Shown: one piece after another, positions 5,173 through 60,634 of the stretch
Layout: each line of letters opens with the position of its first letter
Position numbering within the stretch: the stretch's first letter is position 1
Assembly: GCA_031268215.1 (NCBI GenBank)
Contig: JAIRXP010000051.1
Location: forward strand, 43,992-107,991
Length of the DNA: 64,000 nt
Direction: 5' to 3'
Source of the DNA: Bifidobacteriaceae bacterium
GTDB lineage: Bacteria > Actinomycetota > Actinomycetes > Actinomycetales > WQXJ01
The notes under the pieces: model-generated
The model's input: only the letters and a program-made list of their open reading frames with translations
What the model was told of the DNA's origin: nothing
Database searches by the model: none
Position numbers and translations under genes: made by a program

Positions 5173-5900
5173 CCGCTCCCCTTGAGCTACTGCCCGCTGT
5201 TGACGTCGCTTCCGGACAGGCTGTGCGCCTGGTCCAGGGAGAGGCCGGCAGTGAGACCTTCTACGGTGATCCGCTGGCCGCCGCCATGGACTGGCAACGC
5301 GGCGGTGCCTCATGGGTGCATCTGGTCGATCTGGATGCGGCCTTTGGACGTGGCTCCAACGCCTGCCTGCTTGACGGCGTGGTCGCCGCTCTGGACATCA
5401 AAGTTGAGCTATCCGGGGGCATTCGTGACTCGCAGTCACTGCGGCGCTCGCTAGAAACCGGAGCCCAACGGGTCAACATTGGCACCGCCGCTTTGGAGGA
5501 CCCCGAATGGACTCGGCAGATTCTGGCCGAATACGGTGACCGCGTGGCCATTGGCCTGGATGTGCGCGGTGAAACCCTGGCCGCCCGCGGCTGGACCGAA
5601 GATGGCGGCAACCTCTGGGAAGTGCTGGAACGCCTGAACGCTGATGGTTGCCGGCGTTATGTTGTTACTGATGTGACCAAGGACGGCACTCTGCGCGGTC
5701 CTAACCTGGAACTGTTGCGGGCTGTTTGCGAGCACACGGACGCTGCGGTGGTGGCCTCGGGAGGGGTTTCGTCGCTTGATGACCTGGCTGCCTTGCGCCA
5801 ATTGGTGCCTTTGGGAGTCGAGGGCGCGATAGTCGGCAAGGCCCTGTACGCCGGGGCGTTCGCGCTGACGGATGCCCTTCAGGTGGCGCAGGGCGAATAA
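5169..5900 (+). CDS. hisA: phosphoribosyl isomerase (HisA; actinobacterial PriA-type)
   Basis: 243 aa. [19 protein letters not shown]-terminus, (beta/alpha)8 HisA family motifs ([17 protein letters not shown]). ATGA overlap with hisH. Confidence 0.9.
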
Positions 5901-6116
5901 CACCAACGGCTTGGCGGGCCGCGATCGCAGGTGCCTGCCGCCCGAACGGGGTGAACGGGACTCCCGCCAGACTCTGCTATCGTTTTGCGCGGAGGCTCCT
6001 AAGGTCCATTGGAGGATCTTTAAGGCCCTTTCCCGTACCGGCTGTCTTTTCTGTATTAACGGTAGGGGGGGCATCCCGGCAGTCTCTGGTGTGACTCAAG
6101 AAGGAGACTCAAGATC

Positions 6117-6731
6117 GTGAGTCAAAACAACTACGCGCTGTGGCGGCCGAAGAGCCCGGAGCAGCGTCATGGCAAGATCAAACGGGCGTTGTCTGCCGGC
6201 GTGATCGCCATCGCGCTGGTAGCCGGAGGTTCCGTGGCCAGCTATGCCGATTCGATCAGCCCTTCGAAGGGAGCTTCGACCGCGATTTTCACCCGGTACA
6301 ACGCCAAGAAGCAACAAGAGGCCCAGGCGAAGTTTGACTACGTCAACGTGATTCGCCAAGCGACTGCGAAGACGGGCTACTACTCGGTGGCCAGGGGTTG
6401 GATTCGTGACCGCATGCCGAAAGATTCGCAGAAAGCGTATGCCTGGCAAACCGCGGAACGTGAGCAGATGACGACTAACTTCGGCGCCGGGGGCTATAAG
6501 GTCGACGTGGCGAAATGGAAGAGTGGCGGCACCCAAGAGGCCAACACGCGAACTGCGTTGGACAAAGAAGTGTCGGTTTCGGCGAACGTCTATCACTTCA
6601 AGGATCTCCCGGGAGGGCTGACCGGGCGTTGGAGGAGCAAGTTCGCGGTCTGTGTCGACGTGAAGTGGGCTCCTGACGCGTGCGCCAGCCCTTCGCCCAT
6701 CGTCTTCACGGGCCTTTGGCGGACGATGTAA
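6117..6731 (+). CDS. secreted or membrane-anchored hypothetical protein (Lys/Tyr/Trp/Asn-rich)
   Basis: 204 aa. GTG start 10 nt after AAGGAG. N-terminal basic region then a hydrophobic helix (ALSAGVIAIALVAGGSVASYA, with a possible signal-peptidase site after ASYA). By eye the composition is more A/T-rich than the neighbours. The stop abuts the next start. Confidence 0.6.
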   Translation: MSQNNYALWRPKSPEQRHGKIKRALSAGVIAIALVAGGSVASYADSISPSKGASTAIFTRYNAKKQQEAQAKFDYVNVIRQATAKTGYYSVARGWIRDRMPKDSQKAYAWQTAEREQMTTNFGAGGYKVDVAKWKSGGTQEANTRTALDKEVSVSANVYHFKDLPGGLTGRWRSKFAVCVDVKWAPDACASPSPIVFTGLWRTM

Positions 6732-7529
6732 TTGCGGCCGGAAACTGCGCTATCCCCAACTCCGCCCGTAGTCGAGGCCGACGCGATCTGTTTCGACTAC
6801 GGGCGGCGACGGGCACTCACCGAGGTGTCTTTCGCGCTGACGAGCGGCCTGTGTGCACTCCTTGGGCCCAATGGTGCCGGGAAGAGCACCTTAATCAGCG
6901 TCCTGTCTGGTCTTGTCAAGCCCAGTTCAGGTCGGCTACTTGTAGATGGCACCAGTCTGGATTCAGCCCGTGGCAGATCATTGTGGCGAGCACGGATCGG
7001 ATTCTTACCGCAGAATCCGCACTGGTCGGCGCCCATGACTAGTCGCGCCTTTCTGGAGTATTTCGGTCAGCTAAGAGGGCTGGCCAGGCCAGCGGCGCGT
7101 TCACGCGCTGAAGAATGCCTGGCCCTGGTCGGGTTGGATGACTGCGCCGGCCGGTCGTTGGATCAACTGTCTGGGGGCGAGGTGCGGCGGCTTTTCATTG
7201 CACAGAGCTTGGTGCATGATCCTCAATTGCTGGTTCTTGACGAACCCACCGCTGGCCTTGATCCTTTGGCACGCATTGAACTGCGCGAGTTGATCGACAA
7301 TATGCGTGACGGTCGGATCATAGTCATGGCCACACATCTGCTGGAGGATGTGATACATCTTGCTGCGATGGTCAAGGTCCTTGATCAGGGACGGCTGGTG
7401 TGGCAGGGGTCTGCGGCCGAACTCGGCGCGATCACGAGTCAAGCTGGCCAAGGTTCGTCGCGGCTCGGCTCTCCGGAAGAGCTCGGCTTCGCCGAATTGT
7501 TCGCTGACCACCGGGCGGAAAACGGATGA
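6732..7529 (+). CDS. ABC transporter ATP-binding protein
   Basis: Walker A GPNGAGKST, signature LSGGEVRR, Walker B LLVLDEPT. The TTG start directly follows the upstream stop. Confidence 0.88.
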   Translation: MRPETALSPTPPVVEADAICFDYGRRRALTEVSFALTSGLCALLGPNGAGKSTLISVLSGLVKPSSGRLLVDGTSLDSARGRSLWRARIGFLPQNPHWSAPMTSRAFLEYFGQLRGLARPAARSRAEECLALVGLDDCAGRSLDQLSGGEVRRLFIAQSLVHDPQLLVLDEPTAGLDPLARIELRELIDNMRDGRIIVMATHLLEDVIHLAAMVKVLDQGRLVWQGSAAELGAITSQAGQGSSRLGSPEELGFAELFADHRAENG

Positions 7530-8758
7530 GCGCCGCTAACTGGGCCCGGTGGGCGCCGGCGCCGGTCGGCATTGGGCTGGGAGCGTTCGCCCTGATTGAC
7601 GGCGGAGAGCCCGTCTGGTGGAGCGCGGCGAACGCGCTGAACGCCGTCACTGGTATCTCGATCGTTTACGGCCCCATTCTGACTGGTCTTTGCGCTGGTC
7701 TCTCGGTCTCGACAGTTCGATCAGGTGCGGTGGTCTTGGTACTGGTGCTTCCCGGGCGCGGAGCTGCGAGATGGCTGGGCCGGGAAATCCTGGGTTCGTG
7801 CGGACCGGCGCTAGCGGGCTTTGGGGTTGTCGCCGCTGCCGCACTGGCGGTGGCCGGATGGCACGGTTCGTGGCCGGGAATTGCCCCTTGGGGGCCGTTC
7901 CTCCTCGCCGCTCTGACGATTGTCGCTGCTTGTGCCGTTGGCTGGGCGCTTGGCCTGGTGGCCCCGAGTTGGTTCGCCCCGCCACTGGCGGCGGTAGCGT
8001 TCTATGTGTTGCCGGCTTTCGACATTGGCGGTTGCCGGACGCTGATCGAGTTCGCGGGTAGCACCCTGACCAATAACGCGCTGTACGGGCTCAAGCCCAC
8101 GGCGTTCTGGGCCTTCTGCGCACTGTATGTCGCCTTCCCCTTAGCCTTGGTCTTGGCGGCATTGTTCCGGTTTGGCCGAGACGGGCGGCAGGCAGTTCTG
8201 GCGGGCGTAGCGTTGGCCCTCGCCGGGGCGGTGGCCTACACGATCATCGCTCCCGGCCAGGGTGAGATCTTGCGGGCAGTGTCACGCGACGGCTGGTTCT
8301 GCGCGCCGGTGGGCGGGTCTGGTTCCACGGTCTGCTTGCCGCCTGAGCAGCGCCGCCGGGTAGGGGAGTTCGCTGAAGAACTGAGCGAGCTTGACGAGCG
8401 ACTGTTGGCCGTGGCACCCCAAAGCGGAGGGTGGCGGTACGAACCGCGAGTTGGCTTCCCGGAAGAAGGAGACGGACCAGTCATCGAGGTGGGCCTACCG
8501 GAGGGACCAGAGCCACCGCTGCGCGGTGACCTAGCCGAATTGGCTTCTTGGTCACTTGTTTGGTGCGGGCCGGACATCGAGTTGGCCCCTGAAACCGAGG
8601 AATCCCTAAGGCCGCTTCGGGCCACGGTCATGCTGTGGCTTGATCCGGGCACTTCCGAACAGTATTTGTCCTTCACCGGCGAGTATCCCGCCGCGGCCCC
8701 GACCCTGGATTCGGCCCGGGAGGCGCTGGAGACGGCAAAGTCGATATGCGGCAGTTGA
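7526..8758 (+). CDS. polytopic membrane protein with a soluble C-terminal domain of about 170 aa (putative partner of the ABC ATPase)
   Basis: 410 aa. ATGA overlap with the ATPase gene. About 6-7 hydrophobic helices in the first 240 aa, then a Cys-containing soluble region (WFCAPVGGSGSTVCLPPEQ...WCGPDIEL...KSICGS). No family recognised. Confidence 0.6.
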   Translation: MSAANWARWAPAPVGIGLGAFALIDGGEPVWWSAANALNAVTGISIVYGPILTGLCAGLSVSTVRSGAVVLVLVLPGRGAARWLGREILGSCGPALAGFGVVAAAALAVAGWHGSWPGIAPWGPFLLAALTIVAACAVGWALGLVAPSWFAPPLAAVAFYVLPAFDIGGCRTLIEFAGSTLTNNALYGLKPTAFWAFCALYVAFPLALVLAALFRFGRDGRQAVLAGVALALAGAVAYTIIAPGQGEILRAVSRDGWFCAPVGGSGSTVCLPPEQRRRVGEFAEELSELDERLLAVAPQSGGWRYEPRVGFPEEGDGPVIEVGLPEGPEPPLRGDLAELASWSLVWCGPDIELAPETEESLRPLRATVMLWLDPGTSEQYLSFTGEYPAAAPTLDSAREALETAKSICGS

Positions 8759-9375
8759 CCCATCTGCCGTGGATCAGCCGGTTTCCAGCGACCAGGGGGC
8801 AAGGCCGCGCGTTGCTTGGAGTCTTGATCGGCTTCGTCGCCGTCCTGGTGTGTCCAGCGGGCCTGGAAGACGCCCCGCTCAGAGATGGTGTTTCGGTCTT
8901 GGTGATCCAACTGTGTCCGCTACTGGGGCCGGCCCTGGCCACGTCCTGCTTCGCGTCGCCGGGCCGCCGGCTGGAGCGCCTGGTCGCGGCCCGCCGTGGG
9001 CCCAATCCGGTCGCGCTGCGGCGCGCCATGTGGGGTGCTTCGCTCTCCGTGGGCCTGGTCGCCGGGCCGGTCGCGGCGGGGTTGCTGCGGAACTTTCCCC
9101 TAGACCTGACCGCCGCTTTGGGCCGCAACGCTGTGTTCGGCATCGGCCTGGCCCTACTCAGCGCGGCACTGCTGGCACCCGCGGGCTCCTGGTGTCCAGT
9201 GGTCGCGACCGGTCTTGTTACTTGGGTGTTTGGCGGCCAGGATTCGTTCGGTTCGGTGGTTAGTTGGGCGTTCCTCTTGAAACCTTGGGAAGACTGGCCC
9301 TGGACCGTCGTCGCCGCGCTTATCCTCCTGGTTGGCTTGACTGTTTATGTCTTGTTTGACGGCCGCGAGGCATAA
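8746..9375 (+). CDS. polytopic membrane protein (hypothetical)
   Basis: 209 aa. 13-nt overlap with the previous gene. About 5-6 hydrophobic segments. Last gene of the four-gene unit. Confidence 0.55.
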   Translation: MRQLTHLPWISRFPATRGQGRALLGVLIGFVAVLVCPAGLEDAPLRDGVSVLVIQLCPLLGPALATSCFASPGRRLERLVAARRGPNPVALRRAMWGASLSVGLVAGPVAAGLLRNFPLDLTAALGRNAVFGIGLALLSAALLAPAGSWCPVVATGLVTWVFGGQDSFGSVVSWAFLLKPWEDWPWTVVAALILLVGLTVYVLFDGREA

Positions 9376-9486
9376 GCCTTGGTTCGCGCTCTGGATTGAT
9401 CGCGGTTCGCCGGCCGGCTCGTGGCTGACCCTTGCCGGTGCCGTGCCTGCTGCGGGAACGGGGCGCCCTGTACGTCGCGCCGCAGC

Positions 9487-9495
9487 TGGTATAGT
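9487..9495 (+). promoter_or_regulatory. candidate extended -10 promoter element (TGgTATAGT) for the infC operon
   Basis: TGGTATAGT sits in the 320-bp intergenic region, about 200 nt upstream of the infC start. No good -35 element was seen. Confidence 0.3.
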
Positions 9496-9694
9496 GGCCG
9501 GGACCGACCGCCGTTCTGGATGCCAGGGAGGCGGGGCGTAAGCGGAGGCCAATGGTCTTCCACCCGAACACCCACTGGGACTCGATCAGGTAGGACTGTC
9601 CCGGAATGGTCCGCGGTAGCGGCGAGGGAGTTGGGTTGGCTGGGGTTTTGACCTCCGCGCGCGCCACCAGACTACGCGCTATAAGGAGCGAATC

Positions 9695-10837
9695 ATCAGC
9701 GAACCTCGAATCAACGACCGCATCAGGGTGCCTGAGGTGCGCCTGGTTGGCCCCGGCGGCGAGCAAGTTGGGATTGTCAAACTGGATGTGGCGTTGCGTT
9801 TGGCGGCTGAAGCGGACCTTGACTTGGTTGAGGTGGCCGCGGAGGCCCACCCGCCGGTCGCCAAGTTGATGGATTACGGCAAGTACAAGTACGAATCGGC
9901 CCAGAAGGCCCGCGACGCGCGGCGTAACCAGGCCAACACCGTGCTCAAGGAGATTCGTTTTCGGTTGAAGATCGACCCGCATGATTACGGCACCAAGAAG
10001 GGCCATGTGGAGCGGTTCCTGGGACAGGGTGACAAAGTCAAAGTGATGATCATGTTCCGGGGTCGCGAGCAGTCGCGCCCGGAGATGGGTATGCGGTTGC
10101 TCCACAAGCTGGCCGAAGAAGTGGCCGAGTTAGGGACCGTTGAATCCGCGCCGCGCCAGGATGGGCGCAACATGGTGATGGTGCTGGCGCCAGTCAAGAA
10201 GAAGGCCGCTCGCGCTCCAGGCCGCAAGCGCCAGCGTGACGGCGGCTCTGGGTCGCACCACGAGCACCACGAACGCCAAGAGGCGGAGGGTTTTTCTGCC
10301 GATGCCGTCGGGGCACCTCCAGCTCCCCGCACCGAAGATTTGACGCCGTCAGCGCCCGTCGAGCCGGAGGAACTGGCTCCGGCGCAGGCAGCCGCGCCGG
10401 AGACCCAGGCCGCGTCGGCAGAAGTAAGCACGGTAGCGGAGACGGCTGAGACAGAAGCTGTGGCCGCGGTGGAAGCGGAAGAAGTAGCTGAGACAGCGGA
10501 GACAGAAGCTGCGACTACGCCGTCCACGCCGCCAGCGGAGTCCAAGTCTGCGGCGGCTCCAACTGCTGCGGCGAAGCCTGCCGCAACGCCCAAACCGGCC
10601 GCAGTGCCTAGGCCCGCCGCGGCGCCCAAGCCGGCTGCCGTGGCCAAACCGGCTGCCGTGGCCAAACCGGCGGCAGCGCCCAAGCCCACTGCGCCGGCGC
10701 CTAAGCCGGGCGGCGCCGCCAAGCCGTCCCCGCCGCCCAAGTCAAGAACTCAGCCCGCCAAGCCGAGGACGGCTAAACCGCGTTCTGCCCCCGCCGGCCG
10801 GACGCGATCAACAGAAGAACCGACTAAGGAAAGCTAA
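9695..10837 (+). CDS. infC: translation initiation factor IF-3 with a non-AUG (ATC) start and a long low-complexity C-terminal extension
   Basis: The track ORF starts at GTG 9728, but the frame stays open upstream and encodes [11 protein letters not shown], the conserved IF-3 N-terminus. AAGGAG at 9683-9688 lies 6 nt before ATC 9695. Core motifs: [31 protein letters not shown] tail of about 210 aa rich in A, P, K and E follows. Confidence 0.85.
10631..10666 (+). repeat. perfect 18-nt tandem duplication inside the infC tail (ccggctgccgtggccaaa x2, encoding PAAVAK x2)
   Basis: Read directly from the sequence. It sits within a wider degenerate PAA(x)PK and AETAETEA repeat region. Confidence 0.9.
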
Positions 10838-10841
10838 TACC

Positions 10842-11036
10842 ATGCCGAAGAATAAGACGCACTCCGGTGCTAAGAAGCGTTTCCGGGTTACCGGAACGGG
10901 CAAGATCATGCATGAACAGCCGGGCATGCGGCACAACTTCGAATCGAAATCATCGCACCGCACGCGGCGACTGTCCCAGGACAAGGTTTTGGCCAAGGCC
11001 GACCGCCGGGGCGTCAAGCGCCTGCTGGGCCGCTGA
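10842..11036 (+). CDS. rpmI: 50S ribosomal protein L35
   Basis: 64 aa, MPKNKTHSGAKKRFRVTGTGKI, canonical position after infC. Confidence 0.95.
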   Translation: MPKNKTHSGAKKRFRVTGTGKIMHEQPGMRHNFESKSSHRTRRLSQDKVLAKADRRGVKRLLGR

Positions 11037-11063
11037 GCTAGTTGAGGGTAGAGGAGTCAGACA

Positions 11064-11447
11064 ATGGCAAGAGTCAAGAGGTCAATCAACGCGCGCAAGA
11101 AGCGGCGCTCCGTACTCGAGAAGGCTTCGGGCTACCGTGGACAGCGCTCGCGTTTGTACCGCAAGGCCAAGGAGCAAGTCCAGCATTCCGGCAATTACGC
11201 TTACCGCGACCGGAAGGCCCGCAAAGGCGATTTCCGGCGTCTGTGGATTCAGCGGATCAACGCTGCGGCCCGGGCGAATGGCATGACTTACAACCGGTTC
11301 ATCCAAGGTTTGCACCTGGCTGAGATTGAGGTTGACCGTCGGATGCTGGCGGAAATCGCTGTCACCGATCCGGCGGCCTTCACGCAACTGGTGGCTGAGG
11401 CGAAGAAAGCCTTGCCAGCCGACGTCAACGCACCAGTCGTCGCCTAG
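11064..11447 (+). CDS. rplT: 50S ribosomal protein L20
   Basis: 127 aa, [15 protein letters not shown]...[22 protein letters not shown]. Confidence 0.95.
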
Positions 11448-11482
11448 ATCGCGCTGGCTACCGATTCGGGTCTGGGCTGGAT

Positions 11483-12313
11483 GTGTTGACTAATCCGGCC
11501 TCGGACCGGGTCAAGCGAATTAGGCGCTTGGCCCGGCGTCCAGGCCGCGATGACACTGGTGAACTTCTGGTCGAGGGCCCCCAGGCTTGCCGTGAAGCAG
11601 CCCTGGCCGGGTTGGTGCGGGATCTTTACGCGACGCCTCGGTCACTGGCCTTATACCCTGAGGTCGGCGCTGCCGTGCTGGCCTCAGCTGGACGGTCGCA
11701 TGAGGCCTCCCCAGATTTTGTGCGGGCGGTTTCCTTAGCTTCTCAGGGCATGGTAGCTGAGGTGCGCGATCCCTGGGCGGGGTGGACCGTCGCGGACGGG
11801 TTGGCGGCTTGCCGGCCGGCGGCCGGCTCGCCGGTTGGGCTTGTCGCCGTATTCGAACAGGTCAGGGATCCCGGTAACGCCGGTACCGTCATCAGGGCCG
11901 CCGATGCCGCCGGGGCAGATCTTGTCATATTCGCGGATCAGTCGGCTGATCCGACCGCGCCAAAAGTGATCCGGGCCTCGGCTGGCTCGTATTTCCACGT
12001 GCCTGTCGTGCGGGCAGGACCGGTGGCAGGATTGCTGGCGCAATTGCGGGCGTCCGGGCTGCGGGTGGTGGCGGCGGACGCCTCCGGATCTGTGGTCTTG
12101 GGCTCGGCCAGGCTCAGCCAACCGACCGCTTGGTTGTTTGGCAACGAGGCCCGCGGTTTGACTGCGGGGGCGCGGACTGGCTCGGACGCGGTGGTGCGGA
12201 TACCGATTTACGGGCAAGCCGAATCGCTCAATTTGGCCATGGCCGCGACTTTGTGCTTGTACGCCTCAGCGTCGCAGCGGCGGCTGAGCCCCAGCCGGGA
12301 GCGCTCCCGGTGA
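11483..12313 (+). CDS. TrmH/SpoU family RNA 2'-O-methyltransferase
   Basis: 276 aa. C-terminal SpoU methylase motifs (DPGNAGTVIRAADAAG, FGNEARGL, IPIYGQAESLNLAMA). Synteny after rplT resembles the mycobacterial tsnR position. Confidence 0.85.
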   Translation: MLTNPASDRVKRIRRLARRPGRDDTGELLVEGPQACREAALAGLVRDLYATPRSLALYPEVGAAVLASAGRSHEASPDFVRAVSLASQGMVAEVRDPWAGWTVADGLAACRPAAGSPVGLVAVFEQVRDPGNAGTVIRAADAAGADLVIFADQSADPTAPKVIRASAGSYFHVPVVRAGPVAGLLAQLRASGLRVVAADASGSVVLGSARLSQPTAWLFGNEARGLTAGARTGSDAVVRIPIYGQAESLNLAMAATLCLYASASQRRLSPSRERSR

Positions 12314-50499: not shown

Positions 50500-51851
50500 A
50501 TGAGCGCGGTGGTATTCATCGTGTTTGGGCTTTGCGGGTCGGTGGTGGGCTGTGTAGGTACCGGTTCGACCGATGGCCTGTCTTCTACGCCGTCGGTTTC
50601 CGACCTTTCGGGGGGGCGGGGACCGGCGGCGGAAGTGGCGACGGGGTGAGACTGCGGCTCCAGGTTGATTCGCCAGTGGAGCTGCCGTACACCTCGCACT
50701 ACGAGACGGCTCGCAGAGTGGTGGCGGCGTCGTATGAAAAGCAGGAGGATGCTTGGCAGCGGTGGCAGGGTGACTCAGAGAGCTTCACAGCCAAGTGTAT
50801 GCGGGAGGCCGGATTCGACTATTACCCGGTCGAGTATGATGCGGAGACATCCGAGGAGGTCGCCGAGCGGTCCTATCCGGGGGGCGACACTCTCGATATC
50901 CCCTGGTTGCCGGACAGGCGCCAGGACGTGGAGCGTGTGGGCTATGGGGTCGTGAGTGCGGATGAGTACGGCGGCGCGGATCAGTTCACGGACCCGGAAC
51001 CTGACCAGAACTCGCGGTACGTGGCGGGGTTGTCGAGTTCTGCTAGGCGTGAGTATTACCTGGCGTGGGCGGGCTATGAGGAGGGTTCCCATGAACTAGT
51101 CAACGCGGACAACTGCGGCGACAGGGCGGCCGTGAGGTTCCCGGAGCCTGAACCGGAGGAGTTGTCTTTTCTGGACACGCTTGACCGGATGAAGGGTGTG
51201 ATGGGTGGTGGGCAGTACACGGTTGACGTTACGACTGGTTCGGCGAGAGCTGATCGGGAGCCGGCCGAATGGGAGTTGTGGGGGCACCCGGGTTACAAGG
51301 CTTTGTTGGCGGATTACACGGACTGTTTGAGGCAGGCTGACGGGTCCGGTGGGATTGGCCGCTGGCTGGGTGCTGGGGATGCGAACATTGACCCGACGGC
51401 GGTGTTAAGGCTGGCGGTCGCTACCGGGGAGGACGGTTCTGTGGCGCCGGCGGGCGGGCCGGCTCGTACAGATCTGCCGGAGGAGTCAGACTTCGCTGGG
51501 CTGGGCGTACCGTTGAGCCCGCTTCTAGCCGCGGGGGAGGACCTCCAGTTTGGCGCCGGAGGGCACCGGCGGGGTGAGTTGTTCGGGACTGGCGCCCATG
51601 ATCGCCTTGAGGCGGTCGTAGCGCAGGCTTATCGCGGCGGCGCTGAGTTGGCCCAAGGTGCCGTTCGCGGAATCCTGGAGCATGTAAAGACGGTGGCCAT
51701 GGACGGAATCGACTGTGACGCCGGCCCAGGTCATGGCTGTGACACGGGCCCCGGTGATGTCCTTGGTGATCGTGACGAACGCCACAGCACCGGTGTCGGT
51801 GTTGGGGCCGGTTACCGGATCTGTCTGGTTGGACAAGAAATTGCCCAGTGA
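50500..51851 (+). pseudogene. lipoprotein gene, apparently frameshifted at a G7 tract; 3' end uncertain
   Basis: The lipobox signal MSAVVFIVFGLCGSVVGC is in the frame of ORF 50449..50649. The acidic body (VDSPVELPY...YEKQEDAWQRW...) is in the frame of ORF 50532..51851. The two frames overlap around GGGGGGG 50609-50615, and one extra G would fuse them. The last 327 nt run antisense through capA. Confidence 0.55.
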
Positions 51852-52868
51852 ATAAACGACCCACATGCCTTGGCCGTCCACACCGCCAGGGACCAACTCC
51901 ATGGGCTGGGTCACATGCGGGTGGTCGCCAATGACGGCATCGATTTGGCCTGATGCCGCCAGTCGGGAGACAATCGCCCGTTGTTCGGCCGAAGGCACGG
52001 TCTGGTATTCGACGCCAGCGTGAATGGAAGCCAGCACCACATCTGCGCCGGCGGCACGGGCGGCCACCGCCTGCTTGGCCATGGCGGCTGTGTCGATGGG
52101 AGTGTTGACGGACCATGGCCGGGCCGGTGGCACGGCTATGCCGTTGGTTCCATAGGTGGCCGCGATGTGGGCGATGGTCAGTTCCTGGCCGTTGCCGGTC
52201 AGCCGGTAGAGCTGGGGTAGCGCGGCGTCAGCGGCGGTCAAGGCCGTGCCGGCGTAACCCATGCCATTAGCCTTCAGCGTTTCGAGCGTGTAGGACAAGC
52301 CATCCCAACCCTGGTCAAGCGAGTGGTTGGAAGACGTTGTGCAGCCATCCCAACCCTGTTCCGCCATGTCTCGGACTAACTCTGGCACCGCCCCAAAGAC
52401 GGGGTAGCCGCTGGGCTTTCGGCCCGGCGGTGCCAGGGGTACCTCCATTTGGCAGATCGCCAGATCTGCCGCCGCGATCCACCGGTCAACTCCGGCCAGT
52501 AGAGGAGTGAAGTCGTAGCCGCCGCTGGCGGCGGCTGAAGCGTTCACCGGCATGTGGGTCAGCATGTCTCCGCCAAAGGCGACGGTTGCGGTCAAAGCGG
52601 ACGGCACTTCCGGCGGCGCCTCGCGCGGCGCCGGCCGGACTGTGACGGTGACCAGTGGGGGACTTGAGGGGCCAGGTGGACTGACGCCGGCGGCATCGTC
52701 GGATTGGTATAGGACGAGTGCTAAAACTATCCCCAATCCGCCGCAAGCCGTGAGCGTTGACCCGAGTGCGGTCAGCAGGCGCCGGCGGATAGGGCTCACG
52801 GTGTCTAGCCTATTTGCCAAACCAGCGTTCGACGTGCTGGACGAACGAAGTTTCGAAAGCGTCGTCAC
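51525..52868 (-). CDS. CapA family (PGA_cap metallophosphatase-like) membrane-anchored protein
   Basis: 447 aa. TM anchor LLTALGSTLTACGGLGIVLALVLY; FGGDML; GDHPHV. An alternative GTG start at 52799 would remove the 59-nt overlap with the upstream gene. Confidence 0.8.
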   Translation of the reverse strand: MTTLSKLRSSSTSNAGLANRLDTVSPIRRRLLTALGSTLTACGGLGIVLALVLYQSDDAAGVSPPGPSSPPLVTVTVRPAPREAPPEVPSALTATVAFGGDMLTHMPVNASAAASGGYDFTPLLAGVDRWIAAADLAICQMEVPLAPPGRKPSGYPVFGAVPELVRDMAEQGWDGCTTSSNHSLDQGWDGLSYTLETLKANGMGYAGTALTAADAALPQLYRLTGNGQELTIAHIAATYGTNGIAVPPARPWSVNTPIDTAAMAKQAVAARAAGADVVLASIHAGVEYQTVPSAEQRAIVSRLAASGQIDAVIGDHPHVTQPMELVPGGVDGQGMWVVYSLGNFLSNQTDPVTGPNTDTGAVAFVTITKDITGARVTAMTWAGVTVDSVHGHRLYMLQDSANGTLGQLSAAAISLRYDRLKAIMGASPEQLTPPVPSGAKLEVLPRG

Positions 52869-53859
52869 TGTGGTGTTCGGCCAGCCAATCCGTCAGCGAC
52901 CCGCCGGCCGCCTGATCCATCTCCTGGCGGCAAGCGGCCGGATCGGTGACGGCGCGCAGTAGCATCGCCTCCGCGCCGGCCAGGTCGCGGTAAAAGAACG
53001 GGTAGCCTTCAGGCACTAGCGCTCGGGCCCAGTCCCTATCCGGGAAGATGCCAATGGCGCCGGCCAGCAGGGCTTCAATGTATTCCAGGCCGTAAGTCTC
53101 CTCACGGGCCGTGGCCAGGAAAGCGGTGGTTGAGGCGAGGGCCTCCCAGTACTGTTCGCGGGAAGGCGTCAGCGGCCCGACCCAGGCCCACTTGTTGCGA
53201 GACAAAGCCATCGCCTGATGTGAGACCAGATGCTGTTCGGTCAGCCGTGCTGCGACCTGGATGGGTGCACGTTTGGCCACCCGGGTCACCACGTCGATGA
53301 ACTGCTGTGGCTGCTTGCGTTCCGACATGTAGATGGCGGGGTAGAGCACAACGGGCCGCTCCGGTTCTTGCCGGGGCCGCAAATGATCCACGTGGATCCC
53401 CAGATTGACCCAGGAGATGCGGGCGCGCTCGGCCAGCGGTTGAACGGTCCAACGGCGGACATACTCATGAATCGCCTTGGCGGTCCTTTCCGAGTTGGCG
53501 AAAGTTGGGAACAGCGCACAGGACAGCGACAGGGTGGCCAGTTCGACAGTTGAGTCGTAGCGGGTCCAGTTCCACCACATGAAGTTCATGAGCTTGGGGC
53601 TGGCGGTATTGGCTTTGAGCGTCATCCAGGCGTCAGCTGAATCGAGCACGTCCATGTTGATGACAACGGTTTCTTCGGCGTCGACCATCTCCAAGGGGAG
53701 CACATCGAAGCTGGGGTAGCGGTGGACCTGCGGCGCGACCAGCGCGGCGCCGGGGAAGACCCTAAGCAACCGACGGACCAGAGTGGCGCCGGCGTCATGT
53801 CCGGCCACGGTCCCGTCTGATTCAATCACGATTCCGGAGTACTTGACGGCGATCTTCAT
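52810..53859 (-). CDS. hypothetical protein with a GT-B glycosyltransferase-like C-terminal motif
   Basis: 349 aa. REETYGLEYIEALLAGAIGIF resembles the E-x-FG...EA..G motif of GT4-type enzymes. No firm family assignment. Confidence 0.45.
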   Translation of the reverse strand: MKIAVKYSGIVIESDGTVAGHDAGATLVRRLLRVFPGAALVAPQVHRYPSFDVLPLEMVDAEETVVINMDVLDSADAWMTLKANTASPKLMNFMWWNWTRYDSTVELATLSLSCALFPTFANSERTAKAIHEYVRRWTVQPLAERARISWVNLGIHVDHLRPRQEPERPVVLYPAIYMSERKQPQQFIDVVTRVAKRAPIQVAARLTEQHLVSHQAMALSRNKWAWVGPLTPSREQYWEALASTTAFLATAREETYGLEYIEALLAGAIGIFPDRDWARALVPEGYPFFYRDLAGAEAMLLRAVTDPAACRQEMDQAAGGSLTDWLAEHHSDDAFETSFVQHVERWFGK

Positions 53860-54040: not shown

Positions 54041-54415
54041 CTAAAATGGGAACGTTTCTTCGAGGTTCATGAAGACCGCTATGACGATCCCCACCAACCC
54101 AATTAGGCCGGCCGGCAGACACCAACCGAGACCTCGCTCGCGGCCGTGGTGGATGCGCCATGCCGACCAGAAGGCCAGGATCACGGCGCATCCATCCATG
54201 GGTACCCCGAGGAACAGCCCGACCCAGGGAAACAACGAAAGGGCCAGGCCAATCACCGCCACTGCCAGAGAAACTAAACCGACCGGGCTGACGGGCAGCG
54301 CACCGGTTGCGTAGTCGGGGATCCGGTAAGTGTCGAGTGGTTTCAGTTCGCGGCGGAACAGGTCTTCCGGCTGGGGGCGCGCTGGCTCTTCCTGTGGGTA
54401 GCGGACTGAGTTCAT
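54041..54415 (-). CDS. small membrane protein (DUF4190-like)
   Basis: 124 aa. Pro/Glu-rich N-terminus, then hydrophobic helices VGLVSLAVAVIGLALSLF, GCAVILAFWSAW and LPAGLIGLVGIVIAVF. Preferred over the overlapping frame 54030..54419, which is Arg/Pro-rich. Confidence 0.6.
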   Translation of the reverse strand: MNSVRYPQEEPARPQPEDLFRRELKPLDTYRIPDYATGALPVSPVGLVSLAVAVIGLALSLFPWVGLFLGVPMDGCAVILAFWSAWRIHHGRERGLGWCLPAGLIGLVGIVIAVFMNLEETFPF

Positions 54416-54490
54416 GCACCTAAGCTAGGGCGCGAATGTGACGTAGATCACATTCTTGGCCGCGATGGTCACTCTTTGGACGCCCGGCTC

Positions 54491-56740
54491 CTACTCGAGG
54501 CCCTTGAGGGCCTCGACCGGTTCGATTGACCGGACCCGGCGCCTCAGGAACAAGGTGGTGGATAACGCGGAGAGGGCTGTCACGGCCATCGAGATGAACA
54601 CCGATTGCCAAGTTATGCTGGGGTAGTAGGCCGTATCCCGGGTGTCGAACATGGTGACGTAGACGGTCAAGAACCAGTACCCGACAGGCAGGCCGATTCC
54701 CAGACCGATGGCCGTCATGACGGCGTTTTCGGTTCCGACCAGCCGTCTGATGTCGGCCTTGGTGAACCCTAGTACTGAGAGCGTGGCGTAGTCGCGCGTG
54801 CGCTCCGTGAACGCGAGGGAGCCGAGCGAGTAGAGCACCACGACGGCCAAGATGATCGCGAATACACGGATCAGCATGAAGATCGATTCGAGACCTTTGA
54901 CAAGTTCGTTGCCATTATCGACCTGCAGTGATCGGTCCAGGACCTGTGCGGCCTGATCTGAATCCGAACGTTGTCCTGCGGGTGTCAAAGCGGTCGTGGG
55001 CGTGAAGGTGAGGCCTTGATCCTCCCAGTAGCTTTGGGTCACGTAGAAGCCCTGTGGCGTGGACGTGTCGATAATCGCGGTGAGATCCGCGACGACAGTC
55101 GCATCCGCCGCCGGTATTTCCAGTTTCAATTCATCTCCGGCGGCGAACGCTAAACGTTTGGCCATGGCGGCTGTGGCGTAGACGCCGGCAGCGCCTGGCG
55201 CCGCTTTTCCGTCCGCTGTTAGGTGCATAGAGTCGCCACTGCCCACCACGGTGAGGACCAAGTCTTCAAAGCCGCTGTCAGCGCGGACAATAGTCTCTTG
55301 GAGCAATTGTGTCCCCTCCGGCAACTCATCCAGAGGCGCCCCAGGGATCAGAGTAAGACGCTGCTCGTGAGTTCGTTCGACAGCGAAAACCTGCTTGACT
55401 TGGTCGTACATACTGTCGGAGACGCCGAATCCCGCGAATAGCAGCATCATGCACCCGACGGCGGCGATGATGCCCATCAGGAAGCGTACGCGGTTGAGCA
55501 TTGAGTCGCGCAGCGCCCACCTGGCGCCAACGCTAAACCGATTCCAAATACCGGCCAAACGCTCGATGCCGACGTGGCGGGCGCGGCCGATCGCTTGGCG
55601 TAAGCCCTCTGCCGGAGTCAGCGTCAAAGGCTTCGCCACCGCCAGAAGGGCGCTAGCGCAGCAGGCCGCCACGATCAAGAGAAAGACGACACCTGACAGC
55701 GGGGTGTATGCGATGGTCCAATCCGGCAAGGCGAACATGGCTTTTTGGGTCCCGAGGACGAAGAGTGAGATGGCTGGCGCCGCGAGTGCCCCGACGGCCG
55801 CGCCAACACCACCCGAAGCGAGGCCGAAGGCCAGAAAATGAAGGCGGATCTGAGAGCGAGCGAAGCCCATTGCTTGGAGCGTCGCGATTTCTAGACGTTG
55901 CATCGCCACGATTCGGCGGATGGCGGTAAACATCGCCAATAGTGCCAACAAGATAAACAGCCCACAGAACAGGTAGGACAGATTCTTGATCTGTGCCACG
56001 CGGTCAAACGCGGTGGCGACGGAGGCCCTAGTAGCGCGGCTTTGGACCGTCTGGTAGTCGGTGCCGAGGATTCCAGGAGCGGCCTTGGCGACCGCTTCTG
56101 CGTCGCCTGCGAAGCGCACCAAATTCGATGGGCCCGCGCCCAATGTTTCACTGCCCAGATAACCGTACCCATACTTGCTCGGCTCTGGGGCACCGAGCGC
56201 TGGAGTGCCGGTGAAGTACACCTCGTCGGGAGACAGCACCAACCCCAGAACGTCCAGGGTCTCTGTTTGGCCGCCGGCGTCGATTGTCACTTCGCTGCCG
56301 ACTTGTAGGTCGTGTGCCTCGGCGTAGTCGCGGTCCAGCCACAGGCCCGTCTTGCCAGGTTCCACGGGATCACCTTCGGTGACCGCGGGTCGCGACAAAG
56401 TCTGGTCGGTCGCGGATTCGACCCGGAGGTAACCGCCGTTGTCGGACTGATCGGTTACCCAGCCCTGGGTCGCCGCCTCTACCCGCTCCACGCCGGACAG
56501 ATCTGCGAATTGATCAAGCTGAGCGGGCGTGACGGTGCGAGCCTGGATCCAACCGTCGGCGAGACTGTTAGATTCAGCGAACCTGTCGAGCGAGACCTCA
56601 AGCCCATGCCAAGCTCCTTCAAGCCCCACGTAACACAAGGCCGAGAGCAGCGCCATCAGGAACACCGCGAAGAACTGCCGCCAAGCTTGGAGGAGATCGC
56701 GCATCAGCTTCCGGAGCAGGCCGCCGCTCACCAGTTCCAC
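54491..56740 (-). CDS. MacB/FtsX-type ABC transporter permease (duplicated 4-TM FtsX modules, each with a large extracytoplasmic domain)
   Basis: 749 aa. Two repeats of TM, an approximately 200-aa loop, then 3 TM. Overlaps the ATPase gene by 13 nt. Confidence 0.85.
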
Positions 56741-57411
56741 TGCTCCCGTTCAACAACAGACGCGATCTTCCCGTTGCTGACCCGTATTATTTTGTCGGCC
56801 GCACCGGTCAACGCCTCATTGTGGGTAACGATGACGACGGCGCGGGCAGGATCTTTGGCCAGATCCCGAAGGACCGCTAGAACGCTCGCCCCGGTCTCAG
56901 AGTCCAAGGCCCCCGTCGGTTCATCGCACAGCAGTAAGCGCGGCCGTTTGGCGAGGGCGCGAGCTATGGCAACCCGCTGCATTTCTCCGCCGGAAAGCTG
57001 GAAAGGGAAGCTGTCGCCGCGGTTCTCCAGGCCTACTTCCGCCAACGCCTGGCGCGGATCGATGCGGTCTTGAGCGAATTGACTGCCCAACGCGATGTTC
57101 TCGGCTGCGGTCAGAGAGCTTATGAGATTGTAGAACTGGAACACGAACCCGACGTGGTCGCGCCGGTAGGAGGTCAATTGCTCCTCTGAGGCGGTGGCCA
57201 GGTCCGATCCGTCCACCATAATCGCGCCGGAGGTGGGCGAGTCCATTCCGCCCAACAGGTTGAGAATCGTGGTCTTACCGGAACCGGATGGCCCCAGAAT
57301 CAAGGTCAACTGACCGTCATCAATGCCGAAAGAGGCCTGGTCAACAGCCCTAATCTCCTGCTCTCCCGCTTGGAAGACGCGGGTGACCGCCTTGGTCTCA
57401 ATGGAACTCAA
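56728..57411 (-). CDS. ABC transporter ATP-binding protein (MacB/LolD-type)
   Basis: Probable TTG start at 57411 ([14 protein letters not shown]), with AAGAGGAG just upstream; the track ORF extends to 57534. Walker [37 protein letters not shown]. Confidence 0.85.
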
Positions 57412-57451
57412 AGCTCCTCTTTTCTTAGTAGTTGTTTTCGCGTCACGTTGG

Positions 57452-58228
57452 CTAGAACCTGGTGGCCAACCGCAAACGCCCGGCGAGGGTCGGAGGACGT
57501 TGTTGCTCGATGATACGCCTGGCGACCGCCTCACGGCTGGCAGCTATGGCTGCTGTGGCGTGGCGGACGGCAACGTCCGGGGGCAACAGAATCGGAAGCC
57601 CAAGATGATCGGCTATGGCCTCAACGCGGTGCTCTTGAGGTCCGCCTATTACAGTGAAAGGGATCATGAGGTTATCGAACTCAGCCATTATGTCGCGGTC
57701 GGAGATCTGGCGGTACCGCTCCGAGACAGGGCGGTGACCATCGGTGTCCATCGGGAACTCGATGGGAAGATGCACCACGTGCGTGTAATAGGTCGCGGCG
57801 TGTAGGCGCACGATGTCTCCGAAGGCCCTGGTGTAGATACCGAAGAACGGCGCGAATGGAATCCCAGCGATGGCTTTCAAGAGTTGATGCCAAAAGGGAG
57901 CCCCGGGGTTGATACCGATCTTGCGGCGTACCGTGGCGTAGATCCATTCGTTAAGGACCGAGCCGTCGGAAATGAACGATCCTCGAAACAACAACTCCGC
58001 TTCCGCCCGGCACCTCTCTTCGAATCTGCGCAATCCTAGCGCCATCAGTTCCTCAGCGCTCATGTCTTGGAATCGGCGCCCCGGATACAAATCAGTGAGA
58101 ATCTCGCGGGCTGAAAGTGCGTTGATCAGCGGCAGCCCGGTGGCGATGGAGAGTGCGGTCGCTGTGGTGGTCTTGCCGGTCGAGTAAGTTCCTGAGATGA
58201 CTGCGCGTACTGGGTTAGTGTCGCTCAT
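57452..58228 (-). CDS. P-loop ATPase (AAA_28 / NadR-kinase-like)
   Basis: 258 aa. Walker A VISGTYSTGKTT near the N-terminus. ATGA overlap with the upstream AvrD-like gene. Confidence 0.6.
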   Translation of the reverse strand: MSDTNPVRAVISGTYSTGKTTTATALSIATGLPLINALSAREILTDLYPGRRFQDMSAEELMALGLRRFEERCRAEAELLFRGSFISDGSVLNEWIYATVRRKIGINPGAPFWHQLLKAIAGIPFAPFFGIYTRAFGDIVRLHAATYYTHVVHLPIEFPMDTDGHRPVSERYRQISDRDIMAEFDNLMIPFTVIGGPQEHRVEAIADHLGLPILLPPDVAVRHATAAIAASREAVARRIIEQQRPPTLAGRLRLATRF

Positions 58229-59139
58229 GCTCGTTTCCTCGCACGGGCGGCCCTGGGGGCAAGCCGGTCCGGCAAGGCGTGAGCGATGTCGGCCGAGCAG
58301 GTGAAGTGATCCGATCCTCCGGAGATCCTGAAAACACGGAATATCTGACCGCCCAGCGGCACGTCCCGGACTCGGTCGATTCCTCCCTTGACCTCGGTAG
58401 TCACTCCTGGCGCTAGTGGCTTGTTCGGCTCCATCTTGAGGTCGATCCGGCGCATCCAGAGATTGTGGGACTCTGAGCGTTCCATTTCATCGTGACAGTA
58501 GACGAGGGCCTGCGCCATCTGTGCGGCGATCAGGAGCGCCTCGGGCACCTGGACCCGGGATGACGAGGCGCCGGACACGGCCTCCACCAGTGCAGTAGCA
58601 CTGACTTTGGACGCGCCAGCGCCGATCACAAGGTCGAGAATCCGGGTAGGGCGCGACTTCCACGGATCCGCGGCGTTGAGTGGCTGGGGCGCCGCTTCCA
58701 TGAAGTACAGATCGAGGTCCAAGTTCGCTACCCGGGCCTTCACGGACAGGTCAGTTTGGGAGTTGATTCGGTCCGGCGCGTCGAACTCGACGGAAACGGC
58801 TATCTCCTCAATCGGCGCGGGTTCGTTCCCGGCTTTGACTACCGCACGGGTCATGTACAGAGTGTCAACAAGGGCTGGAGCCGGGTTCGTTACCTCGGCG
58901 AAATGTCGCTTGGTGACGTAATCTGCCAAGACGACAGCGTCCAGCGACGACACGTGCGTCGCCGCTTCCTTGCCTCCTTTGGCCGAACGGCTACCCTCGA
59001 TGGTTGTGGTACACTGGACTAGGCGGACTGTGCGGTGCTCGGAGAATGCGTACCGAACCCGGGTGTGTCCCTCGCCGAAATAGCGGGATTCCGAGTCGCC
59101 TAGCACGGCGTCGATCGTCGCAAAAGCCTGAGACATCAT
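58225..59139 (-). CDS. AvrD-like protein (tentative family recognition)
   Basis: 304 aa. The N-terminal TIDAVLGDSESRYFGEGH and THVSSLDAVVLA resemble, from memory, conserved AvrD (syringolide synthesis) motifs. GAGGAGG RBS. Preceded by a 265-bp spacer that looks lower in GC. Confidence 0.45.
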   Translation of the reverse strand: MMSQAFATIDAVLGDSESRYFGEGHTRVRYAFSEHRTVRLVQCTTTIEGSRSAKGGKEAATHVSSLDAVVLADYVTKRHFAEVTNPAPALVDTLYMTRAVVKAGNEPAPIEEIAVSVEFDAPDRINSQTDLSVKARVANLDLDLYFMEAAPQPLNAADPWKSRPTRILDLVIGAGASKVSATALVEAVSGASSSRVQVPEALLIAAQMAQALVYCHDEMERSESHNLWMRRIDLKMEPNKPLAPGVTTEVKGGIDRVRDVPLGGQIFRVFRISGGSDHFTCSADIAHALPDRLAPRAARARKRA

Positions 59140-59404
59140 TCCTCCTCGTTGGGCTGGTGGCGTGGAGTGAGGAGCTTAAGCGTGCAACTAACTCCTCGCT
59201 GGTGCCATTACCAATCCGTCTTAGTCGCCCGTTCTGGGGCACCGGAAACGCTATCATTCAACCGGCGCGTAGGCAATTCGTCCGGGCGTATAACACGCTT
59301 TACGTGCTAGGGGCTTGTTGATCGTTCACATATTTCGAGCAGCAAATTTGATCGATTGGCACAGGCTCGCCTGACCGCGAAGGACCGGTGGCGAAGCGCC
59401 ACGA

Positions 59405-60634
59405 TCAGTTCCGCGGAGGTGGCGCGTACCGTTCTGGAGGATAGGTTTCGTAAACGTAGTCAATGTCTTTGTCGCCCCGGCCGGATAGGTTGACCAGGAT
59501 CGACTGATAGGGGCGCTGAGCAGCCAGTTCGGTCGCATAAGCGACCGCGTGGGCGGACTCGAGCGCGGGAATGATCCCCTCCAATCGGGACAACTGGTAG
59601 AAAGCCCGGATCGCCGAATCGTCGGTAGCGCCCACGGCGTGGGTGCGGCGAAGGGTCTTGTTCAAGAAGGCGTGCTCCGGCCCCACTGACGGATAGTCGA
59701 GGCCGGACGCCACCGAGTGGACCGAAGCGGGTGAGCCGTCCGGGTTCTCCAGCAGTACCGACCGGAAGCCGTGGAGGCTGCCGTCATGGCCATAAGTGAG
59801 CGAGGCGGCATGCTCTCCCAAGGACGAGCCGGTGCCTAACGGCTCCACCCCCCACAGGTCGGTCGGGTCGTCTATGAAAGCGGAGAAGATGCCCATCGCA
59901 TTGGACCCCCCACCCACGCAAGCGACCACATGATCCGGCAGCCAGCCGGTCATGGCTTGGAACTGTTCACGGGCTTCGATACCAACCACGGCCTGGAAGT
60001 CCCGCACCATCATGGGGAAGGGATGCGGGCCGACAACCGACCCGATGCAGTAGATAGTGCTCACTGGATCTTCCAGGTAGGCGCCAAAGGCGCTGTCCAC
60101 GGCCTCCTTGAGGGTCCGTTGGCCAGCGCCAACCGGCACCACCTTGGCCCCCAACACCCGCATTCGGATGACATTGGGGTGTTCTTTAGCGATGTCCACT
60201 TCACCCATGTGGATCTCGCATTCCAGACCAAAGTAGGCGGCGGCGGTGGCCAGCGCCACGCCATGCTGGCCGGCTCCCGTCTCCGCGATCAGCTTCTTCT
60301 TGCCCAGGTAAGAAGCCAGGAGGGCTTCGCCCATGCAATGGTTGAGCTTGTGGGCACCGGTGTGGTTGAGGTCCTCACGCTTGAAGTAGATGCGTGCGCC
60401 GCCTACGGCATCGGTCAGGCGCTTGGCGTAATAGACCGGAGTGGGTCGGCCCTGGAAGTGTTCGCGGATGTCTCGCAGCTTCATGATGAAATCATGGCTG
60501 TTGCCGATTGTCTGGTACGCCTCATGGATTTTCTCCATTTCTTGAGCCAGTTCGGGCGGCACGTCAGCGCCGCCGTAGGGACCAAAGAAACCCTTATCAT
60601 CAGGGTATTCGCGCAGGTAGGGCTTGGATCGCAT
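59405..60634 (-). CDS. trpB: tryptophan synthase beta chain (stand-alone, no adjacent trpA)
   Basis: 409 aa. PLP-lysine motif [38 protein letters not shown]. Confidence 0.88.

Follow-up and report, generated by a model that had tools for sequence, protein, structure and literature searches.

An AvrD-family protein, a P-loop kinase-like protein and a MacB-type ABC pump in one compact cassette: a candidate mobile butenolide operon of actinobacteria and Firmicutes

Introduction

What do an AvrD-like enzyme, a P-loop protein and a MacB-type ATP-binding cassette (ABC) transporter accomplish when their genes stand side by side in one unit? The question is raised by a minus-strand locus in a 64,000-nt stretch of DNA from a Bifidobacteriaceae bacterium, contig JAIRXP010000051.1 (the window; all window coordinates refer to the whole stretch). 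An initial annotation had read this locus as a horizontally acquired cassette that makes and exports a syringolide- or butenolide-like signal, or confers resistance to one. AvrD-family enzymes have been studied in two pathways only, those of the syringolide plant elicitors and of the methylenomycin antibiotics. AvrD of Pseudomonas syringae is proposed to condense a β-ketoacyl thioester with xylulose, taking its substrates from host primary metabolism, and the AvrD homologs of other genera are only ~30% identical to it.

Based on profile searches, structure prediction and a survey of related loci, we consider it probable that this is a horizontally mobile, self-contained operon whose product is a butenolide of fatty-acyl and pentulose origin. 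A significant AvrD-family match, the recurrence of the same genes together in other genomes and a composition measurably below the window average were all found, and the initial interpretation is supported as a whole, with corrections to several of its parts.

Results

Gene organization of the cassette

The cassette comprises four genes:

58225-59139, minus strand: AvrD/MmyD-family protein, 304 aa, predicted butenolide synthase (Pfam AvrD, 88 bits)
57452-58228, minus strand: MmyX/MmyK-type P-loop kinase-like protein, 258 aa (Pfam AAA_28, 51.6 bits)
56728-57411, minus strand: ABC transporter ATP-binding subunit, 227 aa, MacB/LolD/DevA-like (ABC_tran, 116 bits)
54491-56740, minus strand: fused double-FtsX permease, 749 aa, type VII (MacB superfamily; FtsX matched twice)

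The synthase and kinase genes (58225-59139 and 57452-58228) overlap by ATGA, an arrangement of translational coupling. The most plausible start of the ABC ATPase, inferred from the sequence, is the TTG at 57411, 40 nt past the kinase stop, and the permease and ATPase genes overlap by 13 nt. The anatomy described in the initial annotation, namely five minus-strand open reading frames (ORFs; these four and a small one downstream), the ribosome-binding site, the ATGA coupling, the 40-nt gap and the 13-nt overlap, was reproduced exactly by the ORF list. Entries of a Bifidobacteriaceae metagenome-assembled genome match the window proteins exactly.

The AvrD-like protein is a divergent family member with a double hot-dog fold

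The 304-aa protein matched the AvrD model (PF05655) at 88.1 bits against a gathering cutoff of 25 (E 1e-24, in two stretches), which confirms the proposed family assignment. A word-indexed search recovered only four relatives, and an exhaustive phmmer/HMMER search was used instead, giving a family of 404 representatives. Since just three of these were found at E <= 1e-30, the window synthase is, as judged from its sequence, a divergent AvrD member. Its AlphaFold2 model showed a confident double hot-dog fold (predicted local distance difference test, pLDDT, 90.6; predicted template-modelling score 0.91). The best-matching solved folds were TesB acyl-CoA thioesterases, acyl-acyl carrier protein (ACP) thioesterases and polyketide synthase (PKS) dehydratase (DH) domains, all of which act on acyl thioesters; no solved structure was present among the sequence relatives of the protein.

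The family-invariant residues S52, K54, H62, D67, Q207, Y214, D217, R221 and W228 are all retained in the window protein. In the model, the first central helix carries H62 and D67 at its N-terminus, Q207 and Y214 lie inside the second central helix (198-216), and D217 and R221 follow directly after it. One unusual position was detected: of 149 aligned representatives, the window protein alone carries R at position 51, where the other 148 carry W. The codon concerned (58987-58989, minus strand) is CGT, two changes away from TGG, and is thus not a single-base error. General degeneration of the window protein was considered and is unsupported: its deviations affect 4 of 31 conserved columns, which is inside the range of the family.

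The protein is 28% identical to the butenolide synthase MmyD of the methylenomycin cluster (E 6e-23). By analogy with the studied family members, it would most likely condense a β-ketoacyl thioester with a pentulose to give a butenolide.

The P-loop protein resembles nucleoside kinases and MmyX/MmyK

The second protein had been annotated as a Walker-A ATPase. The Walker A motif and the AAA_28 match (PF13521; 51.6 bits, cutoff 27) bear this out, but the protein is nucleoside-kinase-like rather than a generic ATPase. The Walker A sequence GTYSTGKT is invariant in 29 homologs, and SGTYSTGK, FISDGSV and DGHRPVSE are invariant across the cassette partners. The AlphaFold2 model (pLDDT 91.1) matched deoxyadenosine kinase, the ribosylnicotinamide-kinase domain of NadR and thymidylate kinase, with E values of 5e-6 to 1e-3 and template-modelling scores of 0.5-0.7, and also matched AbmG. 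These fold relatives are P-loop kinases, several of which phosphorylate the ribose 5'-hydroxyl. In addition, it shares 42% identity with MmyX, whose gene adjoins mmyD in the methylenomycin cluster (E 4e-48), and 36% with MmyK (E 2e-32). On sequence and model together, it is a putative kinase of nucleoside-kinase-like, MmyX/MmyK type.

The ABC pair belongs to the MacB superfamily

The domain content and the topology of the last two proteins agree with the MacB-type double-FtsX pump proposed initially. According to the hydropathy profile, the permease is built from transmembrane segment (TM) 1, a loop of ~200 aa, TM2-4, TM5, a loop of ~170 aa and TM6-8; these ~8 TM and two large extracytoplasmic domains make up the duplicated MacB/LolC-type pattern. 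The solved sequences nearest to the permease are LolC, LolF and YtrF. For the ATPase, the top NCBIfam models were DevA, LolD and the MacB ATPase, all under their equivalog cutoffs. Named-equivalog scores were likewise missed for MacB, LolCDE, FtsEX, DevCA and ADOP (189 vs 966 for MacB, 39 vs 622 for ADOP). Because all equivalog scores are far under the cutoffs, the pair is assigned by sequence to the MacB (type VII) superfamily only and to no named equivalog.

A Bce-type module does not fit, as BceB has 10 TM and one extracellular domain; moreover, the window lacks a BceRS system (OmpR-type), and the regulator found in the Firmicute relatives is LuxR-type. Among the PADLOC anti-phage models, the AvrD-like protein, the kinase and the small ORF were unmatched, and the ATPase matched only generic ABC/AAA models.

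The four genes recur together across phyla

Reference genomes were probed with the alignment of the kinase, AvrD being too divergent for this purpose. At least 230 reference species genomes carried a relative, and the best 80 of these 230 loci were analysed. In 78 of them, the AvrD gene came directly before that of the kinase, and the ABC and FtsX genes followed the kinase in most loci outside Nocardia, so that the co-occurrence check suggested by the initial annotation came out positive; the AvrD-kinase-ABC-FtsX arrangement is far beyond chance. The hosts include Streptococcus (mitis, oralis, pseudopneumoniae, equinus, parasanguinis and others), lactobacilli (Limosilactobacillus, Lactobacillus, Fructilactobacillus and Lentilactobacillus), further Firmicutes (Listeria fleischmannii, Enterococcus termitis, Sporolactobacillus and Pseudolactococcus), Luethyella, Nocardia and Acidothermus, with Micrococcales among the cassette-bearing actinobacteria.

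Identity between the window proteins and their counterparts was 21-30% for AvrD, 52-63% for the kinase (across phyla), 47-55% for the ATPase and 34-43% for the permease, which reached 66% against the locus of a Micrococcales metagenome-assembled genome (MAG; L003). In the closest relatives, kinase identity was 79%, 58% and 44%, with long invariant motifs. By these sequence comparisons, the kinase is the most constrained component of the cassette and the synthase the fastest-evolving. The closest AvrD relatives, at 33-43% AvrD identity, keep the order AvrD, AAA_28, ABC and ~750-aa FtsX.

The regulators differ between hosts. The cassette is directly preceded by a ~595-aa histidine kinase (~8 TM) with a LuxR-type response regulator in 10 of 27 representative loci, these ten coming from five Firmicute genera and a Culicoidibacterales MAG. 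The actinobacterial copies have TetR regulators of the TetR_C_21 and TetR_C_6 types: the Micrococcales MAG cassette has a divergent TetR upstream and a major facilitator superfamily (MFS) transporter and a HAD protein downstream, one isolate-genome cassette has TetR downstream, and a variant locus (L001) reads TetR, then AvrD-MFS-AAA_28-HAD. The regulators of the cassette are thus interchangeable between hosts. In the 64-kb window, homologs of TetR, sensor kinase and response regulator were absent, as were those of the MFS and HAD partners. The window copy is an ordinary member of the cassette family, without a regulator and with a suspicious W51R.

After its cassette, the Micrococcales MAG locus (WRMB01000015.1, 12862-15932) carries a weak AAA_28-like remnant, MFS and HAD. 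The MFS and HAD genes are close homologs of their counterparts in the AvrD-MFS-kinase-HAD variant, which suggests that two cassette types merged or recombined there.

Related gene pairs in biosynthetic contexts

The kinase search of plasmids reached the methylenomycin cluster on an SCP1-like plasmid (L091), where the order is AvrD-family MmyD, AAA ATPase, KAS III, ACP, HAD-IB, ATP-binding protein and MFS. The proteins of this pathway are named 'kinase' (MmyX and MmyK), 'phosphatase' (MmyP) and 'butenolide synthase' (MmyD) (PMC12593393, Table S1). Deletion of mmyD abolishes production, and the roles of MmyK and MmyX were left for study (PMC12593393).

In Nocardia barduliensis (L071, 2607-11464), a type I PKS (KS-AT-DH-ER-KR-ACP, 2127 aa) is followed by AvrD, an MmyX-like kinase and a methyltransferase. 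A separate protein of 1450 aa (P0019) has an AvrD domain fused to KS-AT-ACP, and this domain order suggests that AvrD may act there as a chain-release domain. The megaplasmid of the plant pathogen Ralstonia solanacearum PSI07, a beta-proteobacterium (L092, 6809-9247), carries a kinase-AvrD-HAD trio in a region where the record has no genes annotated. Other AvrD homologs adjoin KAS III, ACP and a histidine phosphatase and have no kinase beside them (see also PMC11195616). Phosphatases (HAD, His_Phos_1) thus recur beside AvrD homologs, which argues for phosphorylated intermediates. In some relatives the exporter is replaced by MFS while AvrD and the kinase are kept; such a swap of exporter class argues that product export is the selected function.

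Horizontal transfer and base composition

Lactiplantibacillus plantarum plasmids bear the cassette with its two-component system. On one of them (L090, NZ_CP035117.1, 31.5 kb), IS5 and ISL3 transposases bracket the two-component system and cassette (2339-12089). Kinase matches were also found on Lactobacillus gasseri plasmids, and the chromosomal neighbours of the cassette differ in every genus. The AvrD and kinase trees are incongruent: between L003 and L001, AvrD is 68% and the kinase 45% identical, whereas between the window and L003 AvrD is 41% and the kinase 80% identical. At the borders of the window cassette, neither a tRNA nor flanking direct or inverted repeats were detected.

The initial annotation had judged by eye that the first two genes were less GC-rich than their surroundings. 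This applies to the kinase gene (GC 0.592, z = -1.96), the sole clearly GC-poor gene of the cassette, but not to the AvrD gene (0.621, z = -0.76), which equals the neighbouring trpB (0.618). The composition check itself gave a measurable difference: the whole cassette, at 0.609 against 0.638 for the window, is the lowest 4.6-kb stretch and falls within the lowest 2.3% of such windows. The dip is real but mild; a strong compositional island is ruled out by a deficit of only ~3 GC points and by the ordinary GC of the AvrD gene. Horizontal acquisition, as claimed initially, is consequently well supported by distribution (kinase identity across phyla, plasmids and insertion sequences, differing contexts and tree incongruence) and weakly by composition.

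The synthase decays while the kinase and pump are retained

The state of each gene was surveyed in 42 species-level genomes of the Streptococcus mitis group (loci L011-L056; AvrD gene ~900 nt upstream of locus position ~9980). The synthase gene was intact in 21, frameshifted in 15, interrupted by a premature stop in 5 and cut by a contig end in 1. It was thus disrupted in 20 of the 42 genomes, at several independent positions. The frameshifts include ~8 genomes in which a repeat of ~110-160 bp, resembling the pneumococcal BOX element, is inserted at codon ~30. Over the same set, the kinase was intact in 42/42, the ATPase in 42/42 and the permease in 41/42. In two further loci (L031 and L061), AvrD is cleanly absent and the two-component system, kinase, ABC and FtsX genes are kept. 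Because both stay intact where the synthase has decayed, the kinase and pump have a selected function that is independent of the cell's own synthase. These observations suggest that the kinase-pump module has a protective role as well, and they give weight to the clause of the initial annotation that the cassette 'confers resistance'.

The spacer, the small ORF and flanking genes

Three further features adjoin the cassette:

59140-59404, minus strand: upstream spacer/leader, 265 bp, with the ribosome-binding site GAGGAGG, a hairpin and two TTGATCG copies
54041-54415, minus strand: small membrane ORF, 124 aa, from the ORF list, 75 nt (54416-54490) downstream of the permease
59405-60634: trpB (TIGR00263, 490 bits)

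The spacer lies after a canonical trpB and ends on the cassette side in GAGGAGG-N-ATG. Its lower GC, noted by eye before, was measured at 0.57 against 0.638 for the window, second lowest among 20 spacers of at least 80 nt. The two copies of TTGATCG are at 59318 and 59348 as originally given, and several other two-copy 7-9-mers share the spacer. Over the whole window, this heptamer is about three-fold over-represented (22 copies vs 7.2 +/- 2.8 in shuffles). The pair is unremarkable given the 22 window copies, and these, together with equally long two-copy repeats in the spacer, rule it out as an operator. A sigma-70 consensus promoter was not present on the minus strand of the spacer. A riboswitch or structured leader was also rejected, with no Rfam match and a fold z of -0.72 against shuffles. 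A 9-bp leader hairpin at 59166-59200 (minus strand) pairs GAGGAG with CUCCUC, ~15 nt upstream of the Shine-Dalgarno sequence GAGGAGG, and its CUCCUC arm could instead sequester the true Shine-Dalgarno.

The small ORF had been described as a DUF4190-like member of the unit, which was not borne out: a search of Pfam gave no DUF4190 match even at E <= 10, the only match was DUF7520 at E 0.14, judged meaningless, and a homolog was absent from all related loci examined. With two to three hydrophobic segments by hydropathy, the ORF is possibly co-transcribed with the permease and lies outside the conserved cassette.

The trpB gene stands without an adjacent trpA. On the other side, an ORF of 349 aa (52810-53859, minus strand) was assigned to no family (weak Glyco_trans_1_4, E 0.012) and shares 59 nt with the beginning of the PGA_cap gene downstream (51525-52868). 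An empty-site comparison found no counterpart to the window flanks: the 349-aa protein had no relatives in the metagenome scan, and 80 metagenome loci with a trpB 67-79% identical had no flanking genes in common with the window.

Discussion

Proposed function of the cassette

We propose that the cassette would work in three steps. The double hot-dog enzyme would condense a β-ketoacyl thioester with a pentulose or pentulose phosphate to a butenolide, by analogy with AvrD and MmyD. As neither a ketosynthase nor an ACP is encoded in the cassette, the acyl donor is probably β-ketoacyl-ACP drawn from housekeeping fatty-acid synthesis. The P-loop enzyme, to judge from its fold and from MmyX/MmyK, would then phosphorylate a hydroxyl of the sugar-derived part, on either the substrate or the product. 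The MacB-type pump may finally carry the compound out of the cell, as the gene linkage suggests. By phosphorylation and efflux, the kinase and pump most likely also protect the cell from the compound, since both are kept where the synthase has decayed. In other hosts, expression would be under the adjacent TetR repressor or the multi-TM histidine kinase with its LuxR-type regulator.

Several points weigh against this proposal. The decay of the streptococcal synthase shows that the other three genes do not need it, and the W51R change means that the window copy could be impaired. The window has no dedicated regulator, ketosynthase, ACP or phosphatase. A TetR or two-component system beside a MacB-type pump is also the typical layout of pure resistance. 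The partnership of AvrD with the other genes appears loose, because AvrD, at 21-30% identity, evolves far faster than the other three, and the AvrD and kinase trees disagree. Synthesis and phosphorylation are ascribed to the cassette members by homology and the direction of transport by gene linkage, and MmyX and MmyK are themselves putative kinases.

Much of this would be accommodated if nothing were made at all, the kinase inactivating an incoming toxin, the pump expelling it and the AvrD-like protein being an accessory hydrolase or binder. Such a resistance or detoxification function agrees with the layout of inducible regulator and pump (TetR, or histidine kinase with LuxR-type regulator in 10/27 loci, mostly Firmicutes), with the dispensability of the synthase (20/42 disrupted; missing from L031 and L061, where the other genes are intact), with the kinase as the most conserved component and with the many thioesterases among hot-dog folds. 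We nevertheless regard it as unlikely, as all studied AvrD-family members are synthases or are needed for synthesis, the family-invariant residues are retained in cassette copies, and roughly half of the streptococci and most other genera have an intact AvrD. AvrD and the kinase also stand behind a PKS and in the methylenomycin cluster, and AvrD is found fused to KS-AT-ACP. A juxtaposition by chance of an AvrD-kinase pair with an unrelated housekeeping ABC transporter, to which the 40-nt gap between kinase and ATPase and the pairs without such a transporter in Nocardia, Ralstonia and the mmy cluster might point, is effectively refuted by the AvrD-kinase-ABC-FtsX order in ~60 loci of different phyla, on plasmids and in varied contexts, with short or overlapping junctions.

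It is established that Streptomyces signals through butenolides and butyrolactones sensed by TetR receptors, and the product could be a diffusible signal like A-factor, SRB or the methylenomycin furans, with TetR or the two-component system as receptor and the pump only releasing the signal. The TetR genes flanking actinobacterial cassettes and the multi-TM sensor kinases flanking Firmicute ones agree with this, as do the Streptomyces precedent itself, in which the mmf genes adjoin the mmy cluster, and the loss of production with downstream genes kept, which resembles signal 'cheating'. An autoinducer or hormone is nonetheless rather improbable here. No TetR, sensor kinase or response regulator is encoded anywhere in the 64-kb window; the known receptors are of the ScbR/ArpA type, whereas the TetR proteins here are TetR_C_21 and TetR_C_6; the butenolide hormone systems known so far have neither a dedicated ATP-driven MacB pump nor a kinase; and TetR beside a pump is equally typical of efflux regulation. 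A butenolide operon whose kinase and pump double as protection is thus the reading that we prefer.

Significance

AvrD/MmyD-type butenolide biosynthesis is already known. New here are the compact synthase-kinase-MacB cassette, its breadth in Firmicute commensals, its interchangeable regulators and the decay of the synthase with the kinase and pump kept. The initial annotation did not know this gene combination as a described system. This holds for the four-gene cassette, of which no characterisation was found in the searchable open-access literature, but not for the AvrD-kinase pair, which exists in the methylenomycin cluster. The minimal set of synthase, kinase and ABC pump is common in the human-associated S. 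mitis group and in food and gut lactobacilli, with no product or phenotype reported. It offers a genetically simple route to AvrD-type butenolide chemistry in Firmicutes and to the role of MmyX/MmyK, and it allows a test of whether synthase loss with the kinase and pump kept reflects immunity to a neighbour's metabolite. Gram-positive pathogens are potently inhibited by lactone intermediates from late in the methylenomycin pathway (PMC12593393), and the products of related cassettes may for this reason be bioactive.

As a tentative extension, which we hold to be possible and would not yet rely on, AvrD-type butenolides may be a hidden currency of competition among Gram-positive commensals, namely oral streptococci, lactobacilli and termite-gut actinobacteria. 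The synthase would make a membrane-active lactone and the kinase and pump would constitute a transferable immunity, disarming the lactone by phosphorylation and efflux, with production repeatedly lost and immunity kept. If true, this would provide the first function for the MmyX/MmyK kinases and reveal in the human microbiota a new system of small-molecule antagonism.

Comparison with known systems

The closest likeness is to the methylenomycin cluster of Streptomyces coelicolor SCP1. Both encode an AvrD-family synthase followed by a P-loop kinase of the same subfamily, with the shared kinase motifs SGTYS.GKT, F.SDGS and DGHRPV, and an exporter nearby. To these the mmy cluster adds a KAS III and an ACP, a HAD phosphatase, several redox tailoring enzymes, the MFS pump Mmr and hormone-based regulation. 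The window is without KAS III, ACP, phosphatase and redox tailoring enzymes, and because only the synthase, kinase and MacB-type ABC pump are present, its product cannot be methylenomycin. AvrD of P. syringae belongs to the same Pfam family and, like the window synthase as proposed here, draws its substrates from primary metabolism. The avrD operon continues with a phosphoglycerate-mutase-family protein, sulfotransferase, aminotransferase and oxidoreductase, is HrpL-regulated and has no P-loop kinase or ABC pump.

In the AfsA/ScbA/MmfL systems, a double hot-dog enzyme joins a β-ketoacyl thioester to a small sugar phosphate, with phosphorylated intermediates. They are alike in outline to the window type, with a double hot-dog synthase and with TetR near the relatives of the window cassette. 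The co-substrate is dihydroxyacetone phosphate in AfsA-type systems, which have no kinase or ABC pump, whereas a pentulose is proposed for the window type; the AfsA model (PF03756) gave no match at E <= 0.01, and no TetR was found in the window. Like MacB, LolCDE and YtrF, the pump combines an FtsX permease, bearing large extracytoplasmic domains, with a separate ATPase of MacB/LolD-like type; it differs from them in that its half-permeases are fused in one 749-aa chain and that an adaptor protein is absent.

Regions containing AvrD are named 'furan' by antiSMASH 5 and later (PMC11195616). Sporadic 'furan' clusters in surveys of Ligilactobacillus agilis and of cheese metagenomes, given there without gene or product analysis, may be this cassette; L. 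agilis carries a cassette-type kinase (P0245). With regard to the proposed immunity, the cassette would resemble orphan bacteriocin-immunity genes, in which production is lost and immunity is kept.

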